From Draconibacterium sp. (GTDB lineage Bacteria > Bacteroidota > Bacteroidia > Bacteroidales > Prolixibacteraceae): DNA of 64,000 bases. The stretch covers positions 12 to 64,011 of the forward strand of contig JBFXFM010000021.1 of assembly GCA_050179035.1 (NCBI GenBank). Reading direction: 5' to 3'. Positions 31,652 through 56,185 of this stretch are shown one piece after another (positions within the stretch are counted from its first letter, which is position 1; the number at the start of each line of letters is the position of its first letter). A model generated the notes under the pieces. It ran no database searches. It was not told the DNA's origin and was given only the letters and a program-made list of their open reading frames with translations. Position numbers and translations under genes: made by a program.

Positions 31652-32713
31652 TTAAATTCCCATTGCATGAAGTGCCAGATAAACAAGCCCGGCAATCAGC
31701 ATACTCACTGGGATGGTCAGAATCCAGGCTACCAGCAGGTTCGACGCAACTCCCCAACGAACTGCCGAAAGACGTTTTGTCATACCCACACCCATAATTG
31801 AACCGGCAATGGTATGCGTTGTACTCACCGGAATTCCTAATCCTTGCGAAACACCAAAAAGTGTGATTGCACCGGCAGTTTCGGCAGCAACTCCTTCAAC
31901 CGGGGTCACTTTTGTGATTTTTGTGCCCATGGTTTTTACAATACGCCAGCCTCCCATCATTGTTCCCAACGAAATGGCTGCATAACACGAAATAGGAATC
32001 CATGCAGGTACATGTAAATGTTTTTTCCCGGCAGCATCAATGGTTTCCGATACATGTGCCCAATCAGGGATTGGTAATCCATCGATATTCAATTGGGCTA
32101 CATAAACAAGCATGGCCGCACTAATGATACCCACAACTTTCTGCGAGTCGCTGCCACCGTGCCCTAAACTGAATGCGCCGGATGATACAAGCTGTAATCG
32201 CTTGAACCATTTATTGGAATGGTGCGGGTTAGCCCGTCTGAAAGCCCACAAAATAACAATTGTTAACAGGTACGAGATAATCATACCAATTATTGGTGCC
32301 AGAAAAATAAAACCGATGGTTTTAAATATTACGGCCTGGTTAATCACTGTAAAAGTTCCGGTGTGTGCAACTGCTGCACCGGCAAAACCGCCTATAAGTG
32401 TATGCGACGAAGAAGATGGAATTCCAAAATACCAGGTGAGCAGGTTCCAGATAATGGCAGCAATAATACCTGCAAGAATAACCTGTAAGTTGATGACACC
32501 GCCGTCAACAGTTTTTGCAACTGTGTTTGCCACTTTCAGGTCGAAAATCCAATAGGCCATAAAGTTGAAAAAGGCTGCCCAGATCACGGCGGGCAGGGGA
32601 GCCAGAACTTTGGTGGAAACAACAGTGGCAATTGAGTTGGCTGCGTCATGAAAACCATTGATGAGGTCGAACACAAATGCCAAAACTATGATGATAATTA
32701 GCAATGTAAGCAT
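31652..32713 (-). CDS. Inorganic phosphate transporter (PiT family)
   Basis: NGFHDAANSIAT, GIPSSSSH, SLGHGGSDSQK, GIPVSTTH. Confidence 0.95.
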   Translation of the reverse strand: MLTLLIIIIVLAFVFDLINGFHDAANSIATVVSTKVLAPLPAVIWAAFFNFMAYWIFDLKVANTVAKTVDGGVINLQVILAGIIAAIIWNLLTWYFGIPSSSSHTLIGGFAGAAVAHTGTFTVINQAVIFKTIGFIFLAPIIGMIISYLLTIVILWAFRRANPHHSNKWFKRLQLVSSGAFSLGHGGSDSQKVVGIISAAMLVYVAQLNIDGLPIPDWAHVSETIDAAGKKHLHVPAWIPISCYAAISLGTMMGGWRIVKTMGTKITKVTPVEGVAAETAGAITLFGVSQGLGIPVSTTHTIAGSIMGVGMTKRLSAVRWGVASNLLVAWILTIPVSMLIAGLVYLALHAMGI

Positions 32714-32753
32714 AATCAGAATTTATTATTTCTAAACTTTTTGCTGAATAACA

Positions 32754-33407
32754 TCAGGCATATTTAACCAGAATGGTTTTCACCACATCGGCAACGTCTT
32801 CAATTTTGTTGGCAATTTTTTCAAAATTCAGCAGAATTTCCTTTTGCTTTATCAATTCAATCGGGTCTTTTTCGTTTTCAAAAAGCCCCGAAATAGCTTT
32901 GTGGTAAAGTTCATCCACGCGGCTTTCCATTTTGTGAATTTCTTTACAGGTTTTTAAAACCTTGTCAGCCTTTTTTGTGTCGTCCAATCCGCCTACAGCT
33001 ACTTTTATCAATTGGCTGCCCTGAGATATTTGTGTAGCCATTTCTTTCATAAAGCTGCTGAAGTTATTACAACGGTAAATTTCAATTTTACCCGAAGTTC
33101 CATAAATCAGGTCAACCACATCGTCGATGGTTGAAGTTAACTCATGAATATCTTCCCTATCGAAAGGGGTTATAAATGAACGATTTAACTCATCAAATAT
33201 CTTGTTAGTAAACTCATCGCCTTTTTTCTCGATGGCTTTAATTGTCAACCCAACTGTTAAACGCTCCTCGAGTGTTGGTGCATTAATCAGTTTTTCGAGT
33301 GCGGCCGATGCTTCAATTGTGTTTTCGGCTGCCTGGTTAAACATGGCATAAAATTTTTTCTCTTTCGGGGTAAAATACTTAAGTAAACCTGAAATATCCA
33401 TATGCAA
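32754..33407 (-). CDS. DUF47 (PhoU-like) phosphate transport regulator
   Basis: IEKKGD, FITPFDREDI, LDD.VD, ME..VD, IEDVAD. Confidence 0.93.
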   Translation of the reverse strand: MHMDISGLLKYFTPKEKKFYAMFNQAAENTIEASAALEKLINAPTLEERLTVGLTIKAIEKKGDEFTNKIFDELNRSFITPFDREDIHELTSTIDDVVDLIYGTSGKIEIYRCNNFSSFMKEMATQISQGSQLIKVAVGGLDDTKKADKVLKTCKEIHKMESRVDELYHKAISGLFENEKDPIELIKQKEILLNFEKIANKIEDVADVVKTILVKYA

Positions 33408-33642
33408 TTAATTTAGTCTGTTTTTGTCGATAAATCTGAACCCTGCTTATAATTTGCAGATAGCGTTATTTTTTACCGGCGCAAAAATGCAAATAAAATT
33501 GATTGTTGAAATATTTTTTTAACAAAGTTTACGCATTGTTAATCAGCGCTTAATGTGTTTTGATGCAATAGGTATAAAACAAAACAGCCGCTGCAGTTAC
33601 TGCGCGGCTTATTGTGTTTTCAATCCGTAATTATTGGTTATT

Positions 33643-33993
33643 TTATTTCGAGTTTTCCATTTTAATTTTAAGTTCGGTTTCTTTTGCATTAAGCGAAAGA
33701 ACCTGGGTAGCCGGTTTATATGAAATGTAACTTGTAACTACCTTGTACTCGCCTGGCTTCACCCCATTGAATGCAAAGTTTCCATCAAAGTCGGTGTAGG
33801 TTTTCAGGTCGGTACCTTCAATTTTTACTTCAACACCAGCTAGTGATTCGCCTGAGATTGCATCGGCAATTGAGCCTGCAAGAACAACAGTAGCTGCGTT
33901 ATCAACACTTGCCGGAGCTTTAGTTTCGTTTTCTTTGGCAGAAACTGCGATGGTGAGAACCAGTGCCAACATGCTAAAAATTATCTTTTTCAT
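33643..33993 (-). CDS. Stand-alone CarboxypepD_reg-like (TBDR N-terminal-extension) domain protein
   Basis: Signal peptide; GSIADAISGESLAGVEVKIEGT..TYTDFDGNF..SYISY; likely start 33993. Confidence 0.85.
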   Translation of the reverse strand: MKKIIFSMLALVLTIAVSAKENETKAPASVDNAATVVLAGSIADAISGESLAGVEVKIEGTDLKTYTDFDGNFAFNGVKPGEYKVVTSYISYKPATQVLSLNAKETELKIKMENSK

Positions 33994-34022
33994 TGCTTTA
34001 ATTTTTCTTCCATTATGCAACG

Positions 34023-34080
34023 TAAAAGTATGCCTACACTATTAAACCAGAATTACAGAAATATTACAGTTTTATTACAT
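34023..34080 (-). promoter_or_regulatory. Candidate Pho box (4 repeats, 11-bp period) + -7 element
   Basis: Plus strand from 34041: ATTAAACCAGA ATTACAGAAAT ATTACAGTTTT ATTACAT (TTA at 34042/53/64/75); TACTTTTA on the minus strand at 34023-34030. Confidence 0.7.
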
Positions 34081-34550
34081 TATTTTTCTTCTACATATTT
34101 TCGTTCGCTGATGAGATTTCCCAAGTCATCGTATTTTTTCCAGGTGCCGCTTTTTTCTCCATTAGTGTATTCAAGCTCATACAAAAGAACTCCGCTGTCA
34201 TTCCAGATTTTCCAATGGCCGTGTTTCTGGCCGTCCTTGTACCCTGCAACAGAAACTTTAATATTTTTATTGTTGTACATTTCCCAGGTTCCATCCATCA
34301 GGTTGTTTTTATATGAACGGATTTCGTTTATCTGGCCATTTTCGAAGTAGATTTTTACAACGCCCTCTTTTTTACCTTCAGTAATTTTCATTTCCATTTT
34401 TACCTGACCATTTTCGTAACTGGTTTTGTAGGTACCGGTGTATAGCGAATTGTTGAGGTAAAATAATCCGTCGGTTTCTTTTATATCTTGTGCATCGACC
34501 AGCGAAACCGCTAATAAAATAAGGCCAATTACGAATACAAATTTTTTCAT
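34080..34550 (-). CDS. Exported MORN-repeat (YwqK-like) protein
   Basis: Signal peptide; repeated G..K.YYENGQ / G.W..Y...G motifs; likely start 34550. Confidence 0.85.
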   Translation of the reverse strand: MKKFVFVIGLILLAVSLVDAQDIKETDGLFYLNNSLYTGTYKTSYENGQVKMEMKITEGKKEGVVKIYFENGQINEIRSYKNNLMDGTWEMYNNKNIKVSVAGYKDGQKHGHWKIWNDSGVLLYELEYTNGEKSGTWKKYDDLGNLISERKYVEEK

Positions 34551-34610
34551 TTTTTCATTTTTTTCGTATAACAAAGTAAACGTATTTTTTGAATTTAAGG
34601 TTTTAAAATA

Positions 34611-34638
34611 AGGCTCCGGGCAAAGTTGCCCGGAACCT
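34611..34638 (-). terminator. Hairpin downstream of TBDR-1
   Basis: AGGCTCCGGGCAA-AG-TTGCCCGGAACCT. Confidence 0.65.
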
Positions 34639-34676
34639 TCAAGCTGGTAAAAATCACCAACCTGTCATCACTAATT

Positions 34677-37601
34677 TTAATTTATCCTGTATGATAATGA
34701 GACGGTGTAGGTACGTCCCAGTTCGTATTGCTGGTATAAATAATCGTTGTTGTTGTATTTAACAGCTTTTTTAAATGCCGAATCGAGGATGTTGTTTACT
34801 TTAAATCCGAGGGTAAAATTGCGTAATACAGTTTTTGTAATGTTAAAATTCATCATTCCTTCGGTCGATTCATAAATGTCGGGTGTATCAATATTTGTCT
34901 CGGTCATCCGATCGCCAAATTTGTTGTAATCGAGTGTCGAGTTTAACCCTATTTCGGAATTTGAGTAGCTTAAATTTACATTTACAAGGTATGGCGACTG
35001 GCCAGGGAATGGTCTGGTTTTTTTAACCTCCCAGCCGTTGTTGGCAGCAGTTTCCTGTTCAAATTTGTTCACATCAACTTTCGAATCGATGAATGAAAAA
35101 TTGAGACCAAAACTAAAATCACGCAAACCATCAGCAATAAAATCGAGGTTTTTACGCGCTTCTAATTCAATTCCGGCAAGCTTACCTGTTTCGGAATTCT
35201 GATATTGAATTTGAGGATTTGGAACTTCGATAAGGTATTGCAGTACAATGGGGTTACTAAATTGTTTGTAATATGCGCTAACCGCAAACAACTCGCCAGG
35301 CCTTACAAACCATTCCCAACGGAGGTCGTAATTATTGATTTCGGTTCGTTTAAGGTTTGGGTTACCATTGTAAATTACACCACCAATAAAGTCGAACGAA
35401 GCAAAAGGCGCAAGTTCCCGCAGGTTGGGACGGGCAATGGTTTTACTGGCCGATGCTCTTACATTCATCGTTTCGGATAGTGCAAACACCAGGTTTACCG
35501 AGGGCAGCAGGTCTTTTTCATCAATTTCTCCTTCATAGTCGGCCAGATTCTCATCCGGAATGTATGAGAGCGCCACTACTTTTTCTCTGGGTTGCAGTTT
35601 CACTGACATGTAGGTGGTTTCGTAACGGGCTCCTACAATTGCCTTGAATTTTGGAGTGAAGTTGTAGGTTACCATTGCATACAAGGCATTAATATCGGTG
35701 GTTCCGAGATAATTGTTCTGATGTTTGGTTTGGTTGTACAAATAGTTGCCAATAATGTTTCTGTCTCTGGAATCAACTCCGATTATCCCTGTATTTGCAG
35801 GTCCGAAGTATTGATCTGAATTTCCGCCATAAGAAGTTCCTTTGTCGCGTTCGTACTGGTAAATGGTTTCAAAGAAATTACGCTCTTTGGTTGAATAAAG
35901 TCCGCCAAGCTTTATTTTGTTTGAACTGTTTTTTGATTGAAGAAATGGAATTGTGATGTCAATTTTTCCCTGTAACTGTTCGTCTTTTAATTCGCGCCAG
36001 AAATGAAAAGGCATATCGTATTCAGCCCTCGACATATAATATCCTGTGGTGTCATTATTTTCATCAAGTCGGTATGAGTTGGCGAAAAGCCGCATATCGG
36101 GTTCGTATTGTTTTGAAACGATTTTACTCCCACTGTAATCAATGCGGGTATTGTTCAGTCCCACGAAATTATGGTGTCCACTGATTTTGCCCATCTGCAT
36201 TTCGCGTTCGGTAAAACTCAGTGAGCGGGTTTGGAAGCGGGTATCGCCCGAAAGTGCAGCGGGGAAAACCCCATCCTGAAAACGTGCTGACTTCTCTGCA
36301 TCGTGGTTGTATGAATAGTTGATTTCAACTGAACCATTGTTGCTGTATTTAAAAGCCAATGTTGAAAGCCCGGTAATTTGCGGATTCTCGGTGGCTTTGG
36401 TGTCGTTCAGTATATAGTTTTCGCCCAATGCTTCAGCTCCGGCCTGAACAAGTTCCCAGTTGGCCGAAACGCCATCGCGGTAGTACGAAAAATTGCGGCG
36501 GTAATTTACACCCATAACAAAACCAATTTGTTTGTTGCGAAATACCTGCCATTGGTTACCAATTGAAAAAGCCACTTTCTGGTCGAGTGGGGCTGTCATT
36601 TCGGAGGGTGACATTTGAGAATTTACCGAACGGGCTGCATCATGGAGCAATGCTGCTTCATTTGGATATTTATCGCCCTGACGTGCTTTAATGTAGAGGT
36701 TTGTTGTTAACTCCCCGCCTCTGTCAACCAAAATACCCGGAATGTTGCGATATCCTTTGTCGTATCCAAGCCAATCGGTATTCGAACCCTGATAGGTTAA
36801 AAAGTCATTGTTAAAAGTTGATTGGTCGTTGTAGGCAGTGGAGATTTCAAAATTAAGCGTGAATTGTTCGGGGAAAGCTTTGGTTTTGATGTTCACATTT
36901 CCGCCGGTAAACGAACCAGGTAAGTCGGGAGTAAAAGTTTTTGAGGTGATAATGTTTTCGAGCAGGTTAGCAGGAATCAGGTCGAGGTCAGCAGAATTTT
37001 TATACGGATCAGTTCCGGGCAACTGCTGACCGTCCATTTGTACGCTTGAATAACGGTCGCCGAGTCCGCGAACAAATATGTCTTTGCCATTCATTACCGA
37101 AACGCCGGTAACTTTTATCATCGATTCGGCAGCATTCGAGCTTCCGAATCTTTTCATCTCAATCGAAGAAATCCCATCCTGTATTCCTTCAGCTTTTTTT
37201 TGCATGCTTAAAATGGCATTTTCGCTGTTGGTTAATTGTTTGGCCGTAATGGTAACTTCTGCAATTTCTTCAGTAGCTGGTGCCAACTGAATATTCATAA
37301 CTGTTACATCGCCGGGTTTTACTTCAATCCCTGAAATAGTTTGTGGTGCATACGAGATGTAACTAAAAACAAGAGTTACCATTCCTGAGGGCAGGTTTGG
37401 CAAGGTAAAATTACCATCGAAATCGGTAATTGTACCCGTTGTGGTTCCTTCAATAATAATGTTTACACCAATTAGGGTTTCCCCCGATTTTGCATCTGTA
37501 ATGGTGCCTCGAACAGTTCCTTTGTCTTGCGAAAATATGTTTTGTGATGACAGAAAGATGAAGAAAAGGATACTGAGAATTTTTACCAACTGTGTTTTCA
37601 T
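34677..37601 (-). CDS. TonB-dependent receptor (TBDR-1), no adjacent SusD
   Basis: 974 aa; signal, NTE domain, plug FVRGLGDRY..DLIPANLLENII..KTFTPDLPG.FTGGNVNIKT; C-terminal SLSYRIN. Confidence 0.95.
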   Translation of the reverse strand: MKTQLVKILSILFFIFLSSQNIFSQDKGTVRGTITDAKSGETLIGVNIIIEGTTTGTITDFDGNFTLPNLPSGMVTLVFSYISYAPQTISGIEVKPGDVTVMNIQLAPATEEIAEVTITAKQLTNSENAILSMQKKAEGIQDGISSIEMKRFGSSNAAESMIKVTGVSVMNGKDIFVRGLGDRYSSVQMDGQQLPGTDPYKNSADLDLIPANLLENIITSKTFTPDLPGSFTGGNVNIKTKAFPEQFTLNFEISTAYNDQSTFNNDFLTYQGSNTDWLGYDKGYRNIPGILVDRGGELTTNLYIKARQGDKYPNEAALLHDAARSVNSQMSPSEMTAPLDQKVAFSIGNQWQVFRNKQIGFVMGVNYRRNFSYYRDGVSANWELVQAGAEALGENYILNDTKATENPQITGLSTLAFKYSNNGSVEINYSYNHDAEKSARFQDGVFPAALSGDTRFQTRSLSFTEREMQMGKISGHHNFVGLNNTRIDYSGSKIVSKQYEPDMRLFANSYRLDENNDTTGYYMSRAEYDMPFHFWRELKDEQLQGKIDITIPFLQSKNSSNKIKLGGLYSTKERNFFETIYQYERDKGTSYGGNSDQYFGPANTGIIGVDSRDRNIIGNYLYNQTKHQNNYLGTTDINALYAMVTYNFTPKFKAIVGARYETTYMSVKLQPREKVVALSYIPDENLADYEGEIDEKDLLPSVNLVFALSETMNVRASASKTIARPNLRELAPFASFDFIGGVIYNGNPNLKRTEINNYDLRWEWFVRPGELFAVSAYYKQFSNPIVLQYLIEVPNPQIQYQNSETGKLAGIELEARKNLDFIADGLRDFSFGLNFSFIDSKVDVNKFEQETAANNGWEVKKTRPFPGQSPYLVNVNLSYSNSEIGLNSTLDYNKFGDRMTETNIDTPDIYESTEGMMNFNITKTVLRNFTLGFKVNNILDSAFKKAVKYNNNDYLYQQYELGRTYTVSLSYRIN

Positions 37602-37627: not shown

Positions 37628-37666
37628 AAAAATACCCCCGGAGTATTTTACTCCGGGGGAAATTTT
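37628..37666 (-). terminator. Intra-operon hairpin between T9SS protein 1 and TBDR-1
   Basis: CCCCCGGAGTA-TTT-TACTCCGGGGG, flanked by an A-run and a T-run. Confidence 0.75.
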
Positions 37667-40692: not shown

Positions 40693-40750
40693 CGAAAAAA
40701 AGGTATTAATATTACAAGGGGGTTAATATTAATTTAAGGACTTGTTACAT
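40693..40750 (-). promoter_or_regulatory. Candidate Pho box (4 repeats, 11-bp period) for the T9SS-1/TBDR-1 operon
   Basis: Plus strand from 40711: ATTACAAGGGG GTTAATATTAA TTTAAGGACTT GTTACAT (TTA at 40712/23/34/45); degenerate -7 element TTTTTTCG. Confidence 0.65.
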
Positions 40751-40890
40751 TAGATTAATAAAAATGTAACAATTATAAAAATGTAATAGTAACAGCGTTT
40801 TCAGCTCTTGAGTATAGAAGCAATGGTGTTAACTAAATTTGACGTGTTAATGTTAACTTAAGAAACCGTAGTGCGATATTTAGGTTGGAG

Positions 40891-43555: not shown

Positions 43556-43580
43556 CGCCGACATTTTTTACAACATAATA

Positions 43581-46308: not shown

Positions 46309-46352
46309 GGCGCCTCCTTTTTTTAATTTGAGCAAATTACACCGAATGATTT

Positions 46353-46553: not shown

Positions 46554-46719
46554 ATCTGGCGCACCTCTCATAATCTGAAAGTAGTTTGAAATACAGGTGC
46601 TGACAACCGGTTTTTTCAGATTTACAAGTTGAGGCAGGATGTTCAAAAATCTAAGGCAAAACTTCAGCCTAAATCAGGTGAATGATTGTAAACCGTTTTT
46701 TGTATTTTTAAGAAAAAAA

Positions 46720-47256
46720 ATGATGAGACTTTTATCCTTGCTTTTCATTATAATTCTGGCCACCGGTTGCCAAACCGAAAACAGAAAGGCTGAACCCTCG
46801 CAAAAACGAAGCCACCCGAGCCATCGGTACAATTATGTAACTGTCGATACAACAACATTGAATTATTTCGAAACCGACTACCTGCCGGTTTACTCCGATA
46901 TTTATTATGAGAATGGCACACAGCGGTTCCCGATTACAGCCACTGTGAGTTTGCGCAACACTTCGCTTACCGATTCGGCGTATGTACTTTCGGCCCGATA
47001 TTACGACTCGTATGGTAAAATGCTTCACGTTTATATCGATTCCACCTTGTTGCTGTCGCCACTTGAGTCGGTTGAACTGGTAGTTGAAGAAGGTGAAAAA
47101 GCAGGTGGAGCCGGCGCTAATTTTATCATCGAATGGGCGGCTGCCAAATACACCAACCAGATGCTGATTCAATCGGTAATGATTAGCACGTACGGGCAGC
47201 AGGGCGTTTCATTTCTTTCGGAAGCGAAGGTTATTCAACGGAAAAACCGGGAATGA
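46720..47256 (+). CDS. DUF3124 lipoprotein
   Basis: Lipobox ATGC; YLPVYSDIY, TVSLRNT, RYYDSYG, GGAGANFIIEW, IQSVMI. Confidence 0.85.
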   Translation: MMRLLSLLFIIILATGCQTENRKAEPSQKRSHPSHRYNYVTVDTTTLNYFETDYLPVYSDIYYENGTQRFPITATVSLRNTSLTDSAYVLSARYYDSYGKMLHVYIDSTLLLSPLESVELVVEEGEKAGGAGANFIIEWAAAKYTNQMLIQSVMISTYGQQGVSFLSEAKVIQRKNRE

Positions 47257-48400: not shown

Positions 48401-51274
48401 TTAAAAATTGAGTTTTAAACCAACCCGTGCCCACCAGGAGTAATATTCCTGTTGCAAAAGTTTATCGGGCGTACCCAGGTAGTATTTTAACGGGGCGTTT
48501 GTGAGATTTATTACATCGACAAAAACATTCAGATTTTTTGTGATTGAATAATTCGTTGTAAAATCGAAATGCCAGGCTTTATCGTAGTATTCATCCAAAT
48601 CGCTGTCGGCACCCAGTTCGTGTAAAAAGGCATCGTGATAATTGGCCGTAATTTTTGCATAAAACTTTTTGGTTTCGTAGAAAAGTGCAAGATTGGCTGT
48701 GTGTTTTGCCTGCCCCGGAAGCATTATTTTTTCCTTTTCGCCGTTTTCGTCAAAAAATACGCTCAAATCATCTTCACCAAAAATCACAACAGCGTCGCTG
48801 TAATTGGCCGGGTAGCGCTGGCTGATGTAAGCTTCTGAGAATGTGTAAGTATAGTTGGTATAAATTCCAAAGTTTTTCAGAAAGTTATCGAAAAAGAAAA
48901 GTTTCGACTGGTATTGCAACTCGGCGCCATATACAAAAGCATCGCGTCCGTTGGCTGCAATGGTAATTTCGTCGAGCGAGGTTCCGGTTGAAGCGTCGCT
49001 TTGGTGTGCAAACCGTTTAAAATAAAAGATAAAGTCGTCAATCTGTTTATAGAAAAAGCCCCCTGAAAGTAAGCCTTGTTCGCCAAAATAGGTTTCGCCA
49101 AGCAAATCGAAATTGATGGCTGTCGGGTATTTCAGGTCGGGGTTTCCAAAGGTGTATTGGTCGTTGTCTTTCTCTTCCTTGTAAGGCAACACATCTTTAA
49201 AATTGGGGCGCGAGTAGGTTCGTGTAACAGCAGCCCTGAAGTTTGTATTCTTATTCAAACTATATCTTACCTGCAATTGCGGTAGCAGAAACTGGTGCGA
49301 ACGCTGGTCGTTCAATGTGTCGAGCCGTACAAATTTCTTCCCGTCGGCAATTACATTGTGTCCGGTGTAGTTGATGTTGGTTTTTTCGAACCTCAACCCA
49401 CCCAACAACATCAGGTTGTTGAAGTTGTGTTTTATCATTCCGTAAGCCGCATAAATATCTTCGTTTGCGGTATAGTCAGCACCGTAAGATTCCTGTCGGG
49501 TTCTGGTGGGATCATACACAAACTGGTGCCTGTTGTATTCGTAAAAATCGCGCACTTTTTCGGGCGAAGGCATAGCTTCAATTACATAACCATGATTCAG
49601 CAGGTTGGGGTCGGTAAAACCATCACTCACACCGTAAAGCGTAAGCGGTTCAGCCACGCCGGGGTACGGATTTACTAATTTTGAATAAGGATATCCACCG
49701 TAAACCTGCGAGTTGTCGTCGCGGCTTTTATCTTTCATCCGTACTTTTCCCCCAAATTTGAAACTTCCGTTGCGGTAAGGTATTTCAAGATTCAGTTTTG
49801 CTGTTACATTGATGTCTTTGATGATGTTGTTTTCGAGCTGTAGTCCGTCAAATTCATATTTTGCATAATCAGTAACCAACTGCTCATCGCCTTCGGTAGG
49901 GTAACTAATGGTGGGCCAGTTGGGGTCGGTTAAATCAAATTTCATCATCACGCCGTGCCCCGGACTGTCGAACCCGGTTTCGAGACGGGTGGGGTCTTTT
50001 TCCGATGAATAGGCATAAGCAATTTCGTAATCGATTTTTGTTTTTCCCAGGTTGTGCATACCGCCGAGGTTCAGGGTGTAAATCTCCTGAACCTGCCGTG
50101 TATCGCGAATATCGTGCGCCACCGAGCAGTCGCGGTAAAGTGTTTCACTGATGGCATCGGAGGTTTCGTAAGTTATTCTGCGCCGCAGTTCCTGGTCGGT
50201 AAAACTGTTAAACATTCCGCGAAGGTAAACCGATGAACCTTCGTTAAAGATGTAGTCCATGGTTGTGCTCACGCCAATACGGGTGCGCGTAATATCGTAA
50301 TGTCGAAGTTCCATTTTCTTGTACTGCACCTTGTAATTGTCGATGCTGTCGCCCTGACTTCCCCAAAACGGACCTTTTATATAATTGAATTCCATGTTAT
50401 CGGAGCCCAGGTTGTTTTTGTAATAACTGCTGTTGAGGTAAAATCCGAATTTGCCGTAACGTGCGCCGTATGAAAACTGCACCTGGTAGTTTTCGGTTTG
50501 TCTCAGGTTGTTGTACCCCCCTGAAATTGCAGCCGAAATATCTGGTTTCTGGTCGAGCGCTTTTTTGGTAACAATGTTCACATTTCCGCCAATTCCATCA
50601 GCGTCCATATCGGGGGTTAGCACTTTGGTAATTTCAACAAATTCAATCTGGTCAGCCGAAATTACATCGAGACCAACATAACGCACATCGCCTTCGGGCG
50701 AAGGAATTTGTTCGCCGTTGATGTTAAAGTTGGTAAGCTCCGGCGGGGTTCCGCGGAGTTGTACAAAACGACCTTCTCCCTGGTCGCGCTGCAAGGTAAT
50801 TCCGGGGATTCGCTGAATAACTTCAGCCGCATTCATGTCAGGGAATTTCTCGATTTGTTCAGAAGAAACTATGTTTTTGATGTTTTCAGCTAATTTCTGG
50901 TCGAGCAGGGCTTTTTGCTGACCGCGTGCCAGCGCAGTTATATTAATTTGACCGATTTCCTGTGTTGACGGGTCGAGTGCGATTTTCAGGTTTTTAAGCA
51001 GAGGTTCTGAAAAACTTACCGGAACCACTTTCGTTTGATAACCCATAAACGAAACCAGCAGCGTTACCTGTCTGGATTTTATTCCTGTTAATTCGAAAAA
51101 ACCGTTGTTGTCGGTGATGGTTCCGTGGGTTGTATTTTCAACAACAATCCCTGCACCGGGCAGGGCTTCGTTGGTGGTGGCATCGGTAATAATTCCCGAA
51201 ACCGAATAATTCTGGGCAGCTAATTGTGTGGTTAGAATAAATGAGAAAAGGAAGACAAGGATTTTAGGCTTCAT
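48401..51274 (-). CDS. TonB-dependent receptor (TBDR-2, phytase-associated type), no adjacent SusD
   Basis: 957 aa; NTE; plug PDMNAAEVIQRIPGI.LQRDQGEGRFVQLRG..DADGIGGNVN; C-terminal GLKLNF. Confidence 0.95.
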   Translation of the reverse strand: MKPKILVFLFSFILTTQLAAQNYSVSGIITDATTNEALPGAGIVVENTTHGTITDNNGFFELTGIKSRQVTLLVSFMGYQTKVVPVSFSEPLLKNLKIALDPSTQEIGQINITALARGQQKALLDQKLAENIKNIVSSEQIEKFPDMNAAEVIQRIPGITLQRDQGEGRFVQLRGTPPELTNFNINGEQIPSPEGDVRYVGLDVISADQIEFVEITKVLTPDMDADGIGGNVNIVTKKALDQKPDISAAISGGYNNLRQTENYQVQFSYGARYGKFGFYLNSSYYKNNLGSDNMEFNYIKGPFWGSQGDSIDNYKVQYKKMELRHYDITRTRIGVSTTMDYIFNEGSSVYLRGMFNSFTDQELRRRITYETSDAISETLYRDCSVAHDIRDTRQVQEIYTLNLGGMHNLGKTKIDYEIAYAYSSEKDPTRLETGFDSPGHGVMMKFDLTDPNWPTISYPTEGDEQLVTDYAKYEFDGLQLENNIIKDINVTAKLNLEIPYRNGSFKFGGKVRMKDKSRDDNSQVYGGYPYSKLVNPYPGVAEPLTLYGVSDGFTDPNLLNHGYVIEAMPSPEKVRDFYEYNRHQFVYDPTRTRQESYGADYTANEDIYAAYGMIKHNFNNLMLLGGLRFEKTNINYTGHNVIADGKKFVRLDTLNDQRSHQFLLPQLQVRYSLNKNTNFRAAVTRTYSRPNFKDVLPYKEEKDNDQYTFGNPDLKYPTAINFDLLGETYFGEQGLLSGGFFYKQIDDFIFYFKRFAHQSDASTGTSLDEITIAANGRDAFVYGAELQYQSKLFFFDNFLKNFGIYTNYTYTFSEAYISQRYPANYSDAVVIFGEDDLSVFFDENGEKEKIMLPGQAKHTANLALFYETKKFYAKITANYHDAFLHELGADSDLDEYYDKAWHFDFTTNYSITKNLNVFVDVINLTNAPLKYYLGTPDKLLQQEYYSWWARVGLKLNF

Positions 51275-51318
51275 CGTTGATTTTTTATTTTCAGGAACGA
51301 TTGCTTATCGTAAAAATT

Positions 51319-51352
51319 CACCCTGAACAAAGCTGGAAGCCCGTTCAGGGTG
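51319..51352 (-). terminator. Intra-operon hairpin between T9SS protein 2 and TBDR-2
   Basis: CACCCTGAAC..GTTCAGGGTG. Confidence 0.65.
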
Positions 51353-51374
51353 ATATATTAAATCAATCAGGTTA

Positions 51375-53009
51375 CTAATTAATAATGATTTTCCGGGTTA
51401 CTGAACCGGTTTCGCCAGTAAAACGAATAAAGAAAATGCCTTTGTTTATTGCACTTACATCGATGGTTTGCCTTGTCGATTCAACCAACCCGCGCTGCAC
51501 GGTTTTGCCTGTAATATCGTGAATGCTGAATGTTTCAAAACGGTTTTCTGACAAATCAAAATTCAGTTTTCCGTTGTTCACAGGATTTGGATAAACGTTA
51601 ACCACGGGTTCGGCGCCGATTTGTTCTTTAACCGCATTTGTGCCCGATTTGTAATAAACCACTAATTGCGGAACACGCTCGGGGTGGTTCTGTCCGTCGC
51701 CGCCATCTTCCGGGTCGGCAATATTTTCGAACGATTCCAACTCGCGTGCATTTTCAGCTTCGCTCACGCCCTGGTTTTCACCTTCCATGATAAAAGCTAT
51801 GGCATTTCCCGAATTCCAGCCCTGTAATCCGATGATTTCCTGAACCACCGATTTGATATCCGCAGTGCGGTGTTTTGTGTAAAGTCCCCATTCTTCGGCA
51901 ACTTCCCAGCGTACCGAGGCTGAAGTTTTTGGTCTGTCGGTAATTAAAGCTTCCATGCTAAATGTTTCGGGGTTAGCATTTTTTTCGCCACGGATGGTGA
52001 TGTTGGCTTCATCAGTTGCCGATTTTCCTTCGTGCGAGTGGATTACAATATATGCCGAATCGATGGTAGCATCAGCAGGAATGGTGATTCCGCGGAAACG
52101 TAACCCAAGGTTTACAATGTTGATTGTACTGGCATCCACATATTCATACCCAATATCAAGGTCGTCATCATACAAATCGTCCATTTCATCGTTCTCCTGT
52201 TCGGCATCGTCTGATGATACATTGATAACCACACCTTCTTCCATGATGGTGTCGGTTTTCTGAATATAAACTTCCAGTTTTTCGTTGTCGGTTGTGCCTG
52301 CCGGTTCAGAATAATACACCACCAATTGCGGAACGCGCTCGGGGTGGTTCTGTCCGTCGCCTCCATCTTCGGGGTCGGCAATATTTTCGAACGATTCAAG
52401 TTCGCGTGCATTTTCGGCTTCGCTCACACCCTGGTTTTCGCCTTCAAGAATAAATGAGATGGCATTTCCTGAATTCCATCCGCTCAAACCAATTATTTCC
52501 TGAACCACCGATTTGATATCAGGTGTGCGGTGTTTTGTGTAAAGTCCCCATTCTTCGGCAATTTCCCAGCGTACCGAGGCTGAAGTTTTTGGCCGGTCGG
52601 TAATAAGCGCTTCCATAGTAAATGTTTCGGGGTTGGCATTTTTTTCGCCTTTTATTGTGATGTTGGCCACATCGGTGGCCGATTTTCCTTCGTGAGAGTG
52701 GATTACAATAAATGCCGAATCGATTGTTGCACCTGCCGGAATTGTAATTCCAAGGAAACGCATCCCAAGGTTTACAATGTTTATTTCGCTTGCATCAACA
52801 TATTCATAACCAATGTCGAGGTCGTCGTCAAACAAGTCGTCCATTGCATCGTTTTCCTGCTCTGCATCGTCAGACGAAACATTGATTACCACACCTTCTT
52901 CCATAATGGTGTCGGTTTTCTGAATGTAAACTTCCAGTTTCTTGTTTTGCGCAAAAACTGAAGTGGTAAAAAACAAAAGGAATAAGGAATAAAGTAGAGT
53001 TGATTTCAT
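51375..53009 (-). CDS. T9SS-secreted protein 2: two tandem acidic ~220-aa domains + type-A CTD
   Basis: 544 aa; signal peptide; units offset by 660 bp (SSDDAEQEND..DDDLDIG..LG.RF.GITIP..ATIDSA..WNSGNAI); CTD VYPNPV..DITGK..KIIIN. Confidence 0.9.
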   Translation of the reverse strand: MKSTLLYSLFLLFFTTSVFAQNKKLEVYIQKTDTIMEEGVVINVSSDDAEQENDAMDDLFDDDLDIGYEYVDASEINIVNLGMRFLGITIPAGATIDSAFIVIHSHEGKSATDVANITIKGEKNANPETFTMEALITDRPKTSASVRWEIAEEWGLYTKHRTPDIKSVVQEIIGLSGWNSGNAISFILEGENQGVSEAENARELESFENIADPEDGGDGQNHPERVPQLVVYYSEPAGTTDNEKLEVYIQKTDTIMEEGVVINVSSDDAEQENDEMDDLYDDDLDIGYEYVDASTINIVNLGLRFRGITIPADATIDSAYIVIHSHEGKSATDEANITIRGEKNANPETFSMEALITDRPKTSASVRWEVAEEWGLYTKHRTADIKSVVQEIIGLQGWNSGNAIAFIMEGENQGVSEAENARELESFENIADPEDGGDGQNHPERVPQLVVYYKSGTNAVKEQIGAEPVVNVYPNPVNNGKLNFDLSENRFETFSIHDITGKTVQRGLVESTRQTIDVSAINKGIFFIRFTGETGSVTRKIIIN

Positions 53010-53034: not shown

Positions 53035-53092
53035 CAAGATTAACAAGTGGCATTTAAACGCAGGTTACAATCAGATTAAGTGAATGTTACAG
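53035..53092 (-). promoter_or_regulatory. Candidate Pho box (4 repeats, 11-bp period) for the T9SS-2/TBDR-2/phytase operon
   Basis: TTTAAACGCAG GTTACAATCAG ATTAAGTGAAT GTTACAG from 53053; TAATCTTG -7 element on the minus strand at 53035-53042. Confidence 0.7.
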
Positions 53093-53188
53093 AAACATAA
53101 TTTCTGATTACAACTTTTTGTAAGAAATCGGTCACCAGGATTTTCACCCAGGTGAAAAGATTTTGCTCAAACAATGATTTGAATTTGT

Positions 53189-53563
53189 TTACGCAAATAC
53201 TGTCTCTTTTCTGCTTCCGGCCATTCGGTTAATATGTACCTGCGCTTCAGCATAACTATCGATATTGCGCAGCGATTTGGTAATTTTTATGCGGGTTTCG
53301 GGCCTGTCAACCATTTCCCTGAAATCGTCGAGGCAAATTTCGATACTGCTGTACCTGTAAATCTGGCCGGTTTCAAAATCATAGCTAAAATCTTCAAGTT
53401 CAGCAAAAACAAATTCAAGCCCTGTATTATGAAAGTTGATTTCGTAAAAACGGGCATAAACAAGCGATATACTTCCATCGGGCATTCCGTAAAAATAAAC
53501 GGGGAGTGCTGTATGAAAATAGGTCATGTTCGACTTATAAATTAAAACGGGTTTTGTGCTCAT
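53189..53563 (-). CDS. Hypothetical cytoplasmic protein, paralog of 45898-46308
   Basis: MSTKPVLIYKSNMTYFHTALPVYFYGMPDG; last gene of the plcP-like/GT operon; start 53563 or 53569. Confidence 0.8.
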   Translation of the reverse strand: MSTKPVLIYKSNMTYFHTALPVYFYGMPDGSISLVYARFYEINFHNTGLEFVFAELEDFSYDFETGQIYRYSSIEICLDDFREMVDRPETRIKITKSLRNIDSYAEAQVHINRMAGSRKETVFA

Positions 53564-53580
53564 ATTCATTCAATTAAAGG

Positions 53581-54567
53581 TTAAATGGTGTTACGCATAA
53601 TTATTTTTTCGATGATTTCGTTGGTTCTGTCGGGGAAATCAATTTTCAGCGGCTGTATGTTTTCGAGCCAAAGCCTGATTTTGGCTACATCTTCAGAGAG
53701 GTCGTTTAAAACCTGAACTCCCATTTCGCGCAGGAAAGCTGCATTGCATTGTTGTTCGTACTGGTTTTTCATCGGAATCACACAAAGTTTTTTCCCCATG
53801 TGAAGGGCTTCGGCCGGGGTTTCAAAACCGGCATTACAAAGAATCCCGCTGCAACTGATAAACGACTCGTGAAATTTTTCGATTGAAACGGGTTGAAAAT
53901 GAATATTTTGTTTGCTGTATGATTTTTGGCTGTGTTTCGAAAAAACTTCCCACTGTACCTGTGGAAATGCGCCTAAAACCCTTTCAATCTCTTCGTTACT
54001 GTACGATGGCAAATAAACCGAGTAGTGGTTGTTTGTGGAGTGATTTGCGTTTCGGATTGCAGTTCGGATTACCGGGCTGAAATTGAAGCTGTCGAGCTGA
54101 TTAAAATGAAACCCATATTTTAGCGAAACCGGCGCATAATTTCGGAGAATAAATTTTCCCAGTGCATCATGTTTTTCAGGTTTTGGAGTGGCGTTGTGCA
54201 AAACCGCATTCTGATGACTAAGCCCGATGCACTTTTTGCCCTTAATTTTGCAGGCCCAAGCCGAAACAGGTTCAAAATCGCTGATAACCAGGTCGTATTT
54301 TTGTACTGGCAATTTTATCAAATCAACAAGAAACCTGGGTAACCTTGACTTTGCAATTGTTTTTTTTAAATCAACACCGCCGGTTGTACCAAAAATAAAA
54401 CTCACGCCATAAAACCTGTATTTTACTTCGAACGGGAGTTGAATATCACCCTGAATTCCACTGACGAGCACGTCAGTTTCGGCCATTTTCTGCAGAACAG
54501 GAACGATTTCGGTTGCCCTCGCCAAATGCCCGTTGCCGGTTCCCTGAATTGCGTACAATACTTTCAT
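53581..54567 (-). CDS. GT-B glycosyltransferase (MJ1255/VC2487-like, related to GT28/MGDG synthase)
   Basis: MKVLYAIQGTGNGHLARA, VISDFEPVSAWA, NAGFETPAEAL..GKKLCVIPMKNQYEQ. Confidence 0.88.
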   Translation of the reverse strand: MKVLYAIQGTGNGHLARATEIVPVLQKMAETDVLVSGIQGDIQLPFEVKYRFYGVSFIFGTTGGVDLKKTIAKSRLPRFLVDLIKLPVQKYDLVISDFEPVSAWACKIKGKKCIGLSHQNAVLHNATPKPEKHDALGKFILRNYAPVSLKYGFHFNQLDSFNFSPVIRTAIRNANHSTNNHYSVYLPSYSNEEIERVLGAFPQVQWEVFSKHSQKSYSKQNIHFQPVSIEKFHESFISCSGILCNAGFETPAEALHMGKKLCVIPMKNQYEQQCNAAFLREMGVQVLNDLSEDVAKIRLWLENIQPLKIDFPDRTNEIIEKIIMRNTI

Positions 54568-54570: not shown

Positions 54571-55407
54571 TTACAATATGTTGGTAAAAACAAGTTCTTT
54601 AATCAACGATTGGTATAACTGTCGTCCTTCGGGAATATCAGGTTCGTCATTGGGAAATTCGTCGTCGTTTTCGGTGTGGTAAAAAAGTTTCCATTCTTTT
54701 GAATCGTATTCGGCTGCGGTAAAATTTTCAACCCAGTCGCCGCAATTCAGGTATTTAATGGTTTTGCCATTTATAATCAGCTCTTTTTCTTTTGGGATGT
54801 GGGTGTGCCCGCAAATCACCGATTGATAGCCCTGCGTTTCGGCCACTTCGCCAATTTTCTTCTCAAAAACCGAAGGTTCGGGTTTTTCGCGGAGCCAACG
54901 TTTTTTAATACTCCGGTAAAAGATGATTTCGTTTTTTCCAAAAAGCCTTAAAAACGGCTGAAGTGCGTTGTTCAGCCACGAAAGCAATCCGTACGAAGCC
55001 GCCCCGATTTTGGCTAACCATTTTGTTTCGTGAATCACAAGGTCGAAAATATCGCCATGAAAAATCCAGGTCTTCTGGCCATCAAGGTCCAATACCAACT
55101 GGTTTACAATGCGCAGGTTTCCAATCTGAATTTTTTCAAACTTCCGTAAAAATTCATCGTGATTACCTGTAATGTAATAAACCTGAACCCCTCTTTCCAT
55201 CATTTTAATCAGCTGCCTGATTACTTTGAGGTGGGCTTTGGGGAAAAAATTTCGCGAAAACCGCCACGAATCAATGATGTCGCCGTTTAAGACAAGGGTT
55301 TTGGGTTGTATCGATTTCAGGTATTTTAAAACCTTTTTGGGGTGACAGGCGTGTGTGGCAAGATGAATATCGGATATTACAGCCACTTCCGGTTCTCTTA
55401 TCTTCAT
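54571..55407 (-). CDS. PlcP/LpxH-like metallophosphoesterase
   Basis: VISDIHL, NGDIIDSW, GNHDE, FHGD.FD.V....KWLA, CGHTH, YLNCGDWVE; likely start 55407. Confidence 0.88.
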   Translation of the reverse strand: MKIREPEVAVISDIHLATHACHPKKVLKYLKSIQPKTLVLNGDIIDSWRFSRNFFPKAHLKVIRQLIKMMERGVQVYYITGNHDEFLRKFEKIQIGNLRIVNQLVLDLDGQKTWIFHGDIFDLVIHETKWLAKIGAASYGLLSWLNNALQPFLRLFGKNEIIFYRSIKKRWLREKPEPSVFEKKIGEVAETQGYQSVICGHTHIPKEKELIINGKTIKYLNCGDWVENFTAAEYDSKEWKLFYHTENDDEFPNDEPDIPEGRQLYQSLIKELVFTNIL

Positions 55408-55428
55408 AGTTAATTCACTATAATGCTG

Positions 55429-55486
55429 CAAATTAGGCTGATTGTTATTAATCTACAGTTACAGTTCAGTTACGATAAAAATAAAG
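55429..55486 (-). promoter_or_regulatory. Candidate Pho box for the plcP-like/GT/hypothetical operon
   Basis: ATTAATCTACA GTTACAGTTCA GTTACGATAAA AATAAAG from 55447; CTAATTTG -7 element on the minus strand at 55429-55436. Confidence 0.65.
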
Positions 55487-55530
55487 TTAAAGGCAGCGAA
55501 GATTCAGATTTTACAGTTTCATGTTTTATT

Positions 55531-55576
55531 TTTAACCGGTTTTTAACCGGTTGAACAGTAGTGTTTTGTAGTTTTG
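55531..55576 (+). promoter_or_regulatory. Promoter of the DUF2062 gene with two TTAACC repeats 11 bp apart
   Basis: TTAACC at 55532 and 55543; perfect TAGTTTTG at 55569-55576. Confidence 0.5.
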
Positions 55577-55592
55577 CGGCGCAATGAAACGA

Positions 55593-55610
55593 ATCCCGAT
55601 TTATCGGGAT
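55593..55610. repeat. Short palindrome in the DUF2062 leader
   Basis: ATCCCGAT-TT-ATCGGGAT. Confidence 0.55.
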
Positions 55611-55690
55611 GAGTTACATCGGGTGAGAAAATTGATAAAATAGACGAAGCATAACCGCCAACTAATCAGCAACTTTAATATTTTGTACAG

Positions 55691-56185
55691 ATGAAAATAC
55701 GACCATTCAGATTCGATTCGATAAATACAATCCTGAACAGGCGCAAAGCGCGAATATTCAGGTTATTAAATGCCCAACCCGATAATCCGAAGCATAAGGC
55801 ACTTTCGATTACAACCGGTATTTATCTCGGGTTTTTTCCTGTAATCGGGGCTACTACAGTTTTAAGCCTGATAGTATCATTTGTTTTCAGGCTGAATCAT
55901 TTTTTGGTACAGGGATTAAATCTGTTGCTCGCACCGGTGCATCTTGCAGTAATTCTTCCTGTGCTGAAAGCAGGGCGGTGGCTGTTTTTTGGCGATGGAC
56001 ACGTAATCAGCGCAATTTCGTTTCAACATGGAATCAGCCTTGAAGCGTTTCAACCGCTTTTTGAAAGTGTTGCAGGCGGAATAGTTCTTTGGGCAATTGT
56101 TGCAGCAGTAACCAGTCCGGGCGTTTATTTTCTGATATTAAAAATCGTTGAAAAACAAATAAAGGAAACAGTTTCAAACCAATAG
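55691..56185 (+). CDS. DUF2062 membrane protein
   Basis: ALSITTGIYLGFFPVIG, FRLN, NLLLAP, GRWL; multi-TM. Confidence 0.8.
   Translation: MKIRPFRFDSINTILNRRKARIFRLLNAQPDNPKHKALSITTGIYLGFFPVIGATTVLSLIVSFVFRLNHFLVQGLNLLLAPVHLAVILPVLKAGRWLFFGDGHVISAISFQHGISLEAFQPLFESVAGGIVLWAIVAAVTSPGVYFLILKIVEKQIKETVSNQ

Follow-up and report, generated by a model that had tools for sequence, protein, structure and literature searches.

We analysed a 64,000-nt stretch of DNA (the window), a contig from a landfill metagenome, and within it a block at 31652-56185 in which genes for phosphorus acquisition surround the two-component regulatory genes phoB and phoR. Genes were identified from a listing of open reading frames (ORFs) together with Pfam and NCBIfam profile scans. 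Every gene named in the initial annotation of this DNA was present where it had been placed, and the gene identities bear out its picture of a coherent phosphorus neighbourhood that combines acquisition with sparing functions. The genes are as follows, where TBDR stands for TonB-dependent receptor, T9SS for type IX secretion system and GT for glycosyltransferase.

31652-32713, minus strand: PiT-type inorganic phosphate (Pi) transporter, 353 aa (PF01384 PHO4, 286.5 bits)
32754-33407, minus strand: DUF47/PhoU_div protein (PF01865, 89.4 bits), 40 nt upstream of PiT and probably in one operon with it
33643-34020, minus strand: 125-aa secreted protein with a CarboxypepD_reg domain only (PF13715/PF13620), like the N-terminus of Bacteroidetes TBDRs
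34080-34574, minus strand: 164-aa MORN-repeat protein with a signal peptide (PF07661 MORN_2)
34677-37601, minus strand: TBDR1, 974 aa, with plug, barrel and CarboxypepD_reg domains, not SusC-type (TIGR04056 81.6 bits vs cut-off 368)
37682-40651, minus strand: 989-aa T9SS type-A cargo with two tandem beta-helix domains of the 436-aa-lipoprotein type and a C-terminal sorting domain (Por_Secre_tail)
40891-42651, minus strand: PhoR sensor histidine kinase, 586 aa (Bacteroidota PhoR equivalog NF053855, 673 bits vs cut-off 500)
42667-43353, minus strand: PhoB response regulator, 228 aa (Bacteroidota PhoB equivalog NF053854, 316.9 bits vs cut-off 270)
43581-44576, plus strand: 331-aa outer-membrane beta-barrel ("porin") with weak DUF2490, DUF5777 and Porin_4 matches
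44587-45897, plus strand: 436-aa acidic lipoprotein with an LVSC lipobox, a probable right-handed beta-helix by AlphaFold2 (AF2) modelling and Foldseek
45898-46335, minus strand: 145-aa protein, paralogue of the 126-aa protein (43% identity, E 5e-29)
46639-47256, plus strand: DUF3124 lipoprotein, 205 aa (PF11322, 138.6 bits)
47260-48393, minus strand: beta-propeller phytase with a lipoprotein signal (FNSC; PF02333, 358 bits; Bacillus phytase 1poo/2poo, E 7e-94)
48401-51274, minus strand: TBDR2, 957 aa, TonB-Xanth-Caul subfamily (TIGR01782 471 bits vs cut-off 310; SusC model TIGR04056 66 vs 368)
51375-53009, minus strand: 544-aa T9SS type-A cargo with two acidic CBM96-like beta-sandwich modules and a sorting domain (Por_Secre_tail; AF2; Foldseek)
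53189-53569, minus strand: 126-aa protein, encoded at the end of the plcP-GT operon (57 cluster representatives in 1.84 billion proteins)
53581-54567, minus strand: GT of the Glyco_trans_1_3, MJ1255/VC2487 family, probable glycolipid synthase (PF13528 118 bits; weak PF04101; TIGR00661 154.8 vs cut-off 195.9)
54571-55431, minus strand: LpxH-like metallophosphoesterase, probable PlcP phospholipase C (PF00149, PF12850)
55691-56185, plus strand: DUF2062 membrane protein (PF09835, 41 bits), divergent from plcP and found in none of the related loci

From high to low coordinates, the minus strand is arranged in the units plcP-GT-126-aa, 544-aa T9SS-TBDR2-phytase, 145-aa, phoB-phoR, 989-aa T9SS-TBDR1, MORN, 125-aa and DUF47-PiT; the plus strand carries the porin-like beta-barrel gene followed by that of the 436-aa lipoprotein, and the DUF3124 and DUF2062 genes. 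Neither flank has a phosphorus link: to the left lie an AraC/TPR regulator, a GH30 enzyme, a ROK kinase and ZnuABC, and to the right a peroxiredoxin, a Fur-family regulator and a penicillin amidase.

Because PhoB and PhoR both exceed the curated equivalog cut-offs, the pair is, by these scores, the organism's canonical, genome-wide Bacteroidota phosphate two-component system and not an island-specific one, which corrects the initial annotation where it credited the block with its own regulator. The window's PhoR shares 89% identity with its counterpart in a Draconibacterium orientale metagenome-assembled genome (MAG). A comparison of gene order among relatives had also been proposed, and a tblastn search of all block proteins against 28 related loci (designated by L numbers) revealed a conserved core in more than 20 Prolixibacteraceae loci: lipoprotein and porin genes diverging from phoB and phoR, then a TBDR with one or two lipoprotein paralogues, the MORN gene followed by the 125-aa gene, and DUF47 followed by PiT. 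Since this order is kept in so many relatives and the flanks are unrelated to phosphorus, the clustering of the block is not due to chance. The core spans the family and reaches other orders. The porin is paired with the lipoprotein, divergent from phoB, in about 20 loci; the 125-aa gene adjoins the MORN gene in at least 11, and this pair is found with phoBR throughout Prolixibacteraceae and also in a Paludibacter contig (L028), with the MORN gene alone flanking phoBR in two distant Bacteroidales contigs (L021, L022). A 90%-identical PiT orthologue occupies the same position in L001, a locus whose shared core genes have 81-95% identity to those of the window. By tblastn, the phytase/TBDR2 module is joined to the core in the Draconibacterium-type loci L001, L002, L004, L006 and L016, and plcP and/or the GT gene lies near it in L014, L015, L016 and L026; the TBDR/beta-helix cassettes found between phoR and the MORN gene differ from relative to relative (about 30% identity). 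The Draconibacterium MAG JTS-AC24 has two separate phoBR loci (L002 and L004), each with porin, lipoprotein, phytase and TBDR2, whose PhoRs are 71-72% identical to that of the window; the two loci reflect a genuine duplication or else a mixed bin.

Hexamers resembling TGTAAY recur as direct repeats, 11 bp apart, in the intergenic regions of the block. The candidate element, three to four direct repeats of T[G/T]TAA[C/T] every 11 bp directly upstream of a Bacteroidetes -7 box, precedes six transcription units, and its sites are listed here with their position weight matrix (PWM) scores.

34038-34081, minus strand: strongest Pho-box candidate, with four T[G/T]TAA[C/T] units 11 bp apart (AATGTAATAAAACTGTAATATTTCTGTAATTCTGGTTTAAT); exact pattern match and the window's top PWM score, 30.3
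40729-40773, no strand assigned: Pho-box-like repeats upstream of the 989-aa T9SS gene; PWM 18.3 (+) and 16.8 (-), first PWM 16.6
43506-43559, minus strand: Pho-box-like repeats, four units, in the divergent phoB/porin region; footprint in 16 loci, PWM 22.2-25.4
46380-46412, minus strand: weaker Pho-box-like site in the divergent 145-aa/DUF3124 region; PWM 15.4-15.7 for two units, 12.5-14.7 for three units
53061-53114, minus strand: Pho-box-like repeats upstream of the 544-aa T9SS gene; PWM 23.1, first PWM 19.5; in neither training set
55444-55476, minus strand: Pho-box-like repeats upstream of plcP; PWM 20.9 and 15.8 (plcP/DUF2062 entry)

The array of the 125-aa gene, TGTAAT-N5-TGTAAT-N5-TGTAAT-N5-TTTAAT, is the strongest and best conserved; it lies between the MORN and 125-aa genes, directly upstream of TAcTTTTAC, the -7-like box of the latter, and is kept in 10 relatives (L001, L005, L007, L010, L011, L014, L015, L018, L019 and L026), even where the spacer has expanded to 442 nt. 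Across its 16 loci, the phoB/porin footprint consists of the units TTAAT, TTAAT, AGTAAY and TGTAAC, and the L004 site orthologous to 46380-46412 has a PWM score of 15.3. A first PWM, a unit matrix trained only on the phoB/porin footprint, was tested against 23 other intergenic regions of the window; it scored 11.4-20.4 in eight of ten upstream regions of the block, and no region outside exceeded 11.8 (Mann-Whitney test without the training site, P=0.0009 with two units and P=0.006 with three). With a second PWM, trained on both the phoB/porin and the 125-aa-gene footprints, the seven best three-unit matches in the window and all eight two-unit matches above 13 fell inside the block, upstream of the 125-aa, 544-aa T9SS, phoB/porin, plcP, 989-aa T9SS and 145-aa/DUF3124 genes and facing DUF2062; one of the seven three-unit matches is located within PiT. 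Applied to 657 kb of loci, the same matrix gave 99 sites, compared with 23 in shuffles, and 80 of the 99 were intergenic. Sites occurred upstream of phoB in distant orders, of TBDR/beta-helix modules, of the plcP orthologues in L015 (24.0), L016 (19.6) and L026 (14.2) and, independent of any training, of a 757-aa PHO4-family transporter gene in L006, L008 and L012. This transporter (L006 1177-3450, L008 4523-6796, L012 407-2683) is encoded a few kb from phoBR, has twice the usual length and is absent from the window's block. L016 also encodes a 795-aa multihaem cytochrome/TPR protein (1530-3917); its gene and a divergently oriented gene of the 126-aa family flank a Pho-box-like site. At 55529-55550 on the plus strand of the window, between plcP and DUF2062 and facing the latter, lies a perfect 11-bp tandem (two copies of TTTTTAACCGG) that holds the palindrome AACCGGTT; it may be a second PhoB site or the site of a different regulator.

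The simple pattern TGTAAY-N5-TGTAAY, with at most one mismatch, was marginally enriched (5 matches vs 1.4 expected, equalled in 2 of 100 shuffles), so the combined PWM and footprint approach was needed. A sigma-70 promoter scan, a method ill-suited to Bacteroidetes promoters, showed no enrichment (36 vs 40.7 expected; 15 vs 22.7). Suggestive repeats upstream of distant phytase cassettes (L031, L033, L036) were dropped as evidence, being too AT-rich and too few. In E. coli, the Pho box CTGTCAT-N4-CTGTCAT replaces the -35 element. The element described here resembles it in having 11-bp direct repeats directly upstream of the promoter's downstream element and in its best unit, CTGTAAT, which is one position off CTGTCAT; it differs in having three to four units, some of them degenerate (TTTAAY, AGTAAY), in being paired with a Bacteroidetes -7 box of the TAnnTTTG type and in being predicted only. 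Read from the sequence, the arrangement is that of a Pho box. We found no defined Bacteroidetes Pho box in the literature searched, a search whose reach did not extend to subscription journals, and a candidate Bacteroidota Pho box would permit regulon prediction from sequence alone. With a conserved repeat upstream of six units, enriched relative to the other intergenic regions of the window, the earlier inference of a single regulon becomes probable. Taken together, we are fairly confident that the block is a chromosomal Pho-regulon neighbourhood of a Draconibacterium-like bacterium (Prolixibacteraceae, Bacteroidota), arranged around a canonical phoBR, whose units are activated by PhoB under Pi limitation.

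The phytase gene is co-oriented with that of TBDR2, with a gap of 7 nt, and the 544-aa T9SS gene heads the module. The two modules of the 544-aa protein (52275-52949 and 51615-52274) are an internal tandem duplication with 88% identity, and relatives have one or two copies. Like the 989-aa protein, it scores above cut-off with both PF18962 and TIGR04183 and has a signal peptide visible in its sequence. The AF2 model of a single module reached a predicted local distance difference test score (pLDDT) of 91.6, and Foldseek matched it to the chondroitin-sulfate-binding carbohydrate-binding module (CBM) 8wab (E 2.5e-7, TM 0.55-0.70) and the alginate-binding CBM 7vbo (E 4e-5). At the sequence level, the window module had no match to Pfam CBM96 (PF24517) at E<=10, a PDB sequence search with the 544-aa protein matched the sorting domain only, and a PhoX-fused relative in L064 had a sub-threshold PF24517 score (21.4 vs 26). 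All five family members looked up showed the order T9SS-module gene, TBDR, PF02333 phytase in otherwise unrelated neighbourhoods. We then surveyed 78 loci on metagenome contigs (L038-L115): a TBDR2-like gene lies directly downstream of the T9SS-module gene in 55 of the 56 loci with enough sequence, and a phytase was found by tblastn in 28 of the 39 with room for it. In a further eight near-identical contigs, the ORF after the TBDR encodes a divergent PF02333 protein (tested on L069), so that a phytase is present in about 36 of 39 loci overall, and one of the three exceptions adjoins a calcineurin-like phosphoesterase; these fractions are approximate because the surveyed loci are partly redundant. 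In L069 (1542-5735) and L064 (977-4921), fusion proteins combine two or three partial copies of the module with a PhoX alkaline phosphatase domain and a T9SS sorting domain (BLASTP E 4e-19 to 2e-13). Operon linkage and PhoX fusion thus tie the module repeatedly to phosphorus-scavenging enzymes, and this supports its being a binding or capture module, which, given its charge, would probably act on metal-bridged polyanions.

The suggestion of the initial annotation that T9SS proteins take the place of SusD therefore fares well for the phytase module, where linkage, fold and PhoX fusions make the 544-aa protein look like a dedicated surface binding partner. As a tentative proposal, for which our confidence falls somewhat short of even, the 544-aa protein would stand for a hitherto undescribed family of strongly acidic CBM96-like modules, anchored through the T9SS, that capture metal-complexed phytate or organophosphate, forming a three-gene phytate utilisation cassette across Bacteroidota, with the module also grafted onto secreted PhoX. 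No description of the T9SS-TBDR-phytase triad was found in the literature searched, again with subscription journals outside its reach. If the proposal is true, the cassette and, as the Bacteroidota Pho box, the array of three to four T[G/T]TAA[C/T] units would together constitute a SusD-independent, T9SS-based design for selfish organophosphate uptake. Phytate is the largest organic phosphorus pool of many soils and sediments, and the cassette may point to its uptake by Bacteroidota without release of Pi to competitors.

The second set of surface proteins is of the beta-helix type. The 436-aa lipoprotein (isoelectric point (pI) 4.3) has at least 7996 homologues and the database annotation Pfam PF28492; the beta-helix matches listed for it include tailspikes, PL6 lyases, polygalacturonases, pectin methylesterases and the adhesin PfbA. 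The domains of the 989-aa protein are 42% identical to it, and at the DNA level the gene contains two copies of 1081 bp (38170-39250 and 39487-40567) that are 100% identical and offset by 1317 bp. In the assembly graphs of three metagenomes (X1-X3), the repeat has 2x depth and a junction contig, and a wastewater metagenome (X9) holds a single-copy form, so near-identical strains differ in how many copies of the beta-helix domain they carry. The duplication is thus real, recent and polymorphic. Homologues of the 331-aa beta-barrel are named "porin" by NCBI and a few carry PF07642; the protein itself has no match to the OprP-type phosphate porin family PF07396 at E<=10, and a PDB sequence search found no match for either the porin or the beta-helix lipoprotein.

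In the plcP-GT operon, the GT gene starts 4 nt downstream of plcP. All the metallophosphoesterase motifs (DIH, GDIID, GNHDE and GHTH) can be read in the PlcP-like protein, whose nearest solved structures are LpxH (E 8.6e-10); being LpxH-like and yet below the cut-off of the LpxH models (67.8 vs 134), it fits the published description of PlcP. Homologues of the 126-aa protein adjoin the GT, PlcP or phytase gene in L014, L015 and L016, and the family that it forms with the 145-aa protein occurs near Pho genes in L001, L004 and L014-L016. Neither paralogue has a visible signal peptide or a known domain; the 145-aa protein had no Pfam or NCBIfam match even in a relaxed Pfam scan (E<=10), and such scans gave no usable matches for the uncharacterised proteins of the block. 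The MORN/125-aa pair may modulate TBDR/TonB coupling, and the membership of DUF2062 in the regulon is uncertain.

Terminator-like hairpins lie between several of these genes.

37635-37659, minus strand: hairpin between the 989-aa T9SS gene and TBDR1; 11-bp stem with 8 GC pairs and a U-run (-23.5 kcal/mol, z -4.4)
51318-51353, minus strand: hairpin between the 544-aa T9SS gene and TBDR2; 14-bp stem (-23.1 kcal/mol, z -6.2)
About 34600-34660, minus strand: hairpin after TBDR1 (-29.7 kcal/mol, z -6.4)
About 33575-33625, minus strand: hairpin after the 125-aa gene (folding energy scan)

A hairpin of this kind stands before each TBDR gene, before the MORN gene and before the DUF47 gene (z -4.2 to -6.4), and no box was found upstream of TBDR1, TBDR2 or the MORN gene. 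The receptors would therefore depend on read-through from the upstream T9SS gene, and the hairpins suggest that this read-through is attenuated, yielding more binder than transporter.

Gene identities, synteny, the motif common to the units and the recurrent association of the T9SS module with a TBDR and a phytase are observed; from them we infer a model in which PhoB binding, induction, substrates and topology are all predicted. Under Pi limitation, phosphorylated PhoB would bind the arrays of three to four T[G/T]TAA[C/T] repeats, at the position of the -33 element and upstream of the -7 box, and would thereby activate at least six units: phoBR itself with the divergent porin and acidic beta-helix surface lipoprotein; the T9SS-anchored double beta-helix protein and then TBDR1; the small, presumably periplasmic 125-aa protein that resembles a TBDR N-terminus; the T9SS-anchored double CBM96-like protein and then TBDR2 and the lipoprotein phytase; plcP, the GT and the 126-aa protein; and, on weaker evidence, the 145-aa paralogue and DUF3124. 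The surface-anchored acidic proteins would capture metal-complexed organophosphate such as phytate, the TonB receptors would import it, and the phytase would free Pi in the periplasm, to be taken up by PiT (with DUF47) or by a Pst system whose genes lie elsewhere; phospholipids would be swapped for glycolipids by PlcP and the GT.

Several observations weigh against this model or parts of it. The strong hairpins and the lack of a box of their own mean that the TBDR genes may be regulated separately, and the region upstream of DUF47-PiT (33408-33642) has a weak motif match. Pit systems are PhoB-repressed in some bacteria. The Pho box is a computational prediction, AT-rich repeats are easily over-read, and the sequencing runs that hold the window sequence are DNA metagenomes only (landfill, biofilm and wastewater). 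The capture proteins are strongly acidic (pI 4.2-4.4; 4.2 for the 544-aa module), so that metal bridging would be required for them to bind anionic phytate directly. The AF2 model of the 436-aa lipoprotein is of moderate confidence (pLDDT 65, predicted template modelling score 0.70), and its Foldseek matches, almost all of them right-handed beta-helices, include none with E<1e-3. Finally, the Caulobacter TBDR Cc0171, whose gene adjoins that of the surface lipoprotein ElpS, was reported to be constitutive (PMC2996285).

Some of these points suit a narrower regulon, in which PhoB controls only phoBR, the porin-lipoprotein pair, the 125-aa gene and plcP, with the TBDR modules and DUF47-PiT as neighbours under separate control whose roles lie in other nutrients (glycans, metals) or in constitutive Pi uptake. 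The hairpins before two TBDR genes without their own boxes, the weak motif upstream of DUF47 and the constitutive Caulobacter receptor would all be expected, and beta-helix and CBM-like folds are typical of polysaccharide-active proteins. We nevertheless regard this explanation as improbable, given that strong boxes stand upstream of both T9SS genes heading the TBDR modules, that the gap between module gene and TBDR is 1-78 nt in relatives, that the phytase gene follows TBDR2 so closely, that the CBM-like module is fused to PhoX elsewhere, that TBDR and beta-helix pairs adjoining phoBR carry boxes in many loci and that the F. johnsoniae TonB-dependent transporters Fjoh_0545 and Fjoh_1368 are induced by Pi depletion (PMC8115612). 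Far less credible still is a horizontally acquired, self-contained phosphorus island whose dedicated PhoBR-like paralogue controls only the block. The tight packing of phosphorus functions, the two phoBR loci of JTS-AC24 and the differing cassettes in the phoR-MORN slot could be read in its favour; they are opposed by the equivalog scores of PhoB and PhoR, by core synteny across the family and into other orders and, in relatives, by the motif upstream of phosphate transporters outside the block. The GC content is 0.38-0.48 throughout with no step at the block borders, no integrase, transposase, other mobility gene or repeat border was found in the window, and the sole tRNA (at 21542) lies 10 kb from the block; together with the conserved core, these features therefore argue for a vertically inherited neighbourhood with a variable periphery and not for a mobile island. 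Nor is the block self-contained, as the initial annotation had it, because profile scans of the block and its flanks found no pstSCAB, phoU or phosphatase within the window.

A further alternative leaves the PhoB regulon as we propose it and reassigns its surface proteins: the acidic beta-helix proteins, and possibly the CBM-like protein, would be enzymes or enzyme activators and not SusD-like binders. Possible activities are those of phosphoesterases or of lyases that release phosphorus-containing polymers, and ElpS, which stimulates a phosphatase, offers a parallel. Invariant Asp, Glu, His and Arg residues are numerous in the beta-helix family (SIRHGG, NEINGL, DDGxE, GDDAFDYD), its fold relatives are mostly lyases and hydrolases, and ElpS increases extracellular phosphatase activity (PMC2996285). 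However, sequence searches matched no catalytic family, ElpS showed no phosphatase activity after re-folding (PMC2996285), and the CBM-like module is nearest to non-catalytic binding modules and is appended to PhoX. We consider an enzymatic role rather unlikely, though clearly less so than either of the two preceding explanations.

Outside the block, a peroxiredoxin and a Fur-family regulator (possibly PerR-like) lie directly to its right (56271-57479), the former overlapped on the opposite strand by a spurious 248-aa ORF. Two further proteins of the window are unrelated to the block: a 772-aa protein without a Pfam match (61572-63890) and a 1038-aa protein with Golvesin_C and fn3 domains (3120-6236).

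The block shares with a classical polysaccharide utilisation locus (PUL), of the SusC/SusD type, the combination of a surface capture protein, a TonB importer, a periplasmic hydrolase and a sensor-regulator; it differs in that the regulator is the global PhoBR and not a hybrid two-component system or an extracytoplasmic function (ECF) sigma/anti-sigma pair. No ORF of the block matched a SusD-family Pfam model and both TBDRs are far below the TIGR04056 cut-off, in agreement with the initial annotation, which had noted the lack of SusD. Domains of carbohydrate-active enzymes (CAZymes) are likewise absent from 31652-56185, the GH30 gene (27066-28496) lying outside with an AraC-type regulator between. 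Without SusD, SusC-type receptors or CAZymes, the block falls outside a strict definition of a PUL.

Zavaleta-Pastor et al. are said to have described, in 2010, a plcP-glycosyltransferase lipid-remodelling operon. Operons of plcP and GT genes with a Pho box are known from marine bacteria, and PlcP homologues occur also in Flavobacteria (Sebastián et al., 2016; PMC4796936). The operon of the window likewise has an LpxH-like metallophosphoesterase followed by a GT, with a candidate Pho box upstream; it differs in that the GT belongs to the Glyco_trans_1_3/MJ1255 family and that an extra 126-aa gene ends the operon, and its likeness to validated PlcP is by description. A gene pair of beta-propeller phytase and TonB-dependent receptor goes back to Lim et al. 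(2007), as cited in PMC8115612. As in the F. johnsoniae pair Fjoh_1367/1368, the PF02333 phytase here directly adjoins a TBDR; the difference is a third gene, encoding the T9SS acidic CBM96-like protein, which heads the cassette here and in about 36 of 39 related loci.

In Caulobacter, ElpS (CC0170) is a Pho-induced surface lipoprotein whose gene adjoins that of the TBDR CC0171; it stimulates a phosphatase and is not one itself (PMC2996285). The block similarly has a surface lipoprotein gene adjoining a TonB-Xanth-Caul-type receptor. ElpS is released through a type II secretion system and a protease, whereas the two paralogues of the block are a lipoprotein and a T9SS cargo. The 436-aa lipoprotein probably belongs to the family of ElpS and the F. 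johnsoniae lipoproteins FI, FII and FIII, and its relationship to ElpS rests on the 31-36% identity reported between FI-FIII and ElpS (PMC8115612).

The closest comparison is with F. johnsoniae, in which Pi depletion induces PUL-like "Pus" clusters, as established by transcriptomics and proteomics (Lidbury et al., 2021; PMC8115612); the idea of a PUL-like phosphorus locus therefore already has experimental support in that organism. According to the same study, PUSIV (Fjoh_0541-0549) comprises phoBR, the TonB-dependent transporter Fjoh_0545, the pectin-lyase-fold lipoprotein FII (Fjoh_0546), a porin and a GT; PUSIII comprises a TonB-dependent transporter, the lipoprotein FI and two T9SS-domain proteins; and the phytase Fjoh_1367, the transporter Fjoh_1368 and PlcP are induced as well. 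With the Pus clusters, the phytase-transporter pair (PMC8115612) and plcP-GT operons with a Pho box (PMC4796936) in print, the novelty implied by the initial annotation does not hold. The pieces that appear to be new are the conserved T9SS CBM96-like/TBDR/phytase cassette with its PhoX fusions and the candidate Bacteroidota Pho box. A Flavobacteriaceae contig (L023), considered as a PUSIV-like locus, has an orphan PhoR-like kinase after a trp operon and was uninformative. Like PUSIV, the block has phoBR flanked by a TonB-dependent transporter, a lipoprotein (here of probable beta-helix type), a porin and a putative lipid-remodelling GT; like PUSIII, it has T9SS proteins; and it is PUL-like without CAZymes. 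It differs from PUSIV in gene order, in a porin that is not a PF07396 OprP and in a beta-helix protein that occurs also as a T9SS-anchored tandem double, the likeness to Fjoh_0546 being by description; and induction by Pi depletion, shown in F. johnsoniae, is here predicted from the motif. The phytase/TBDR, plcP/GT and DUF47-PiT modules, scattered in F. johnsoniae, are here contiguous with phoBR. The block provides a compact syntenic map of the Pho regulon for Prolixibacteraceae, a family common in sediments, landfills and wastewater, and extends the Flavobacterium "Pus" picture to another order, the PUL-like phosphorus locus itself not being new. Collectively, these comparisons indicate that the block is the Prolixibacteraceae counterpart of the Flavobacterium Pus clusters, with their modules gathered around phoBR.

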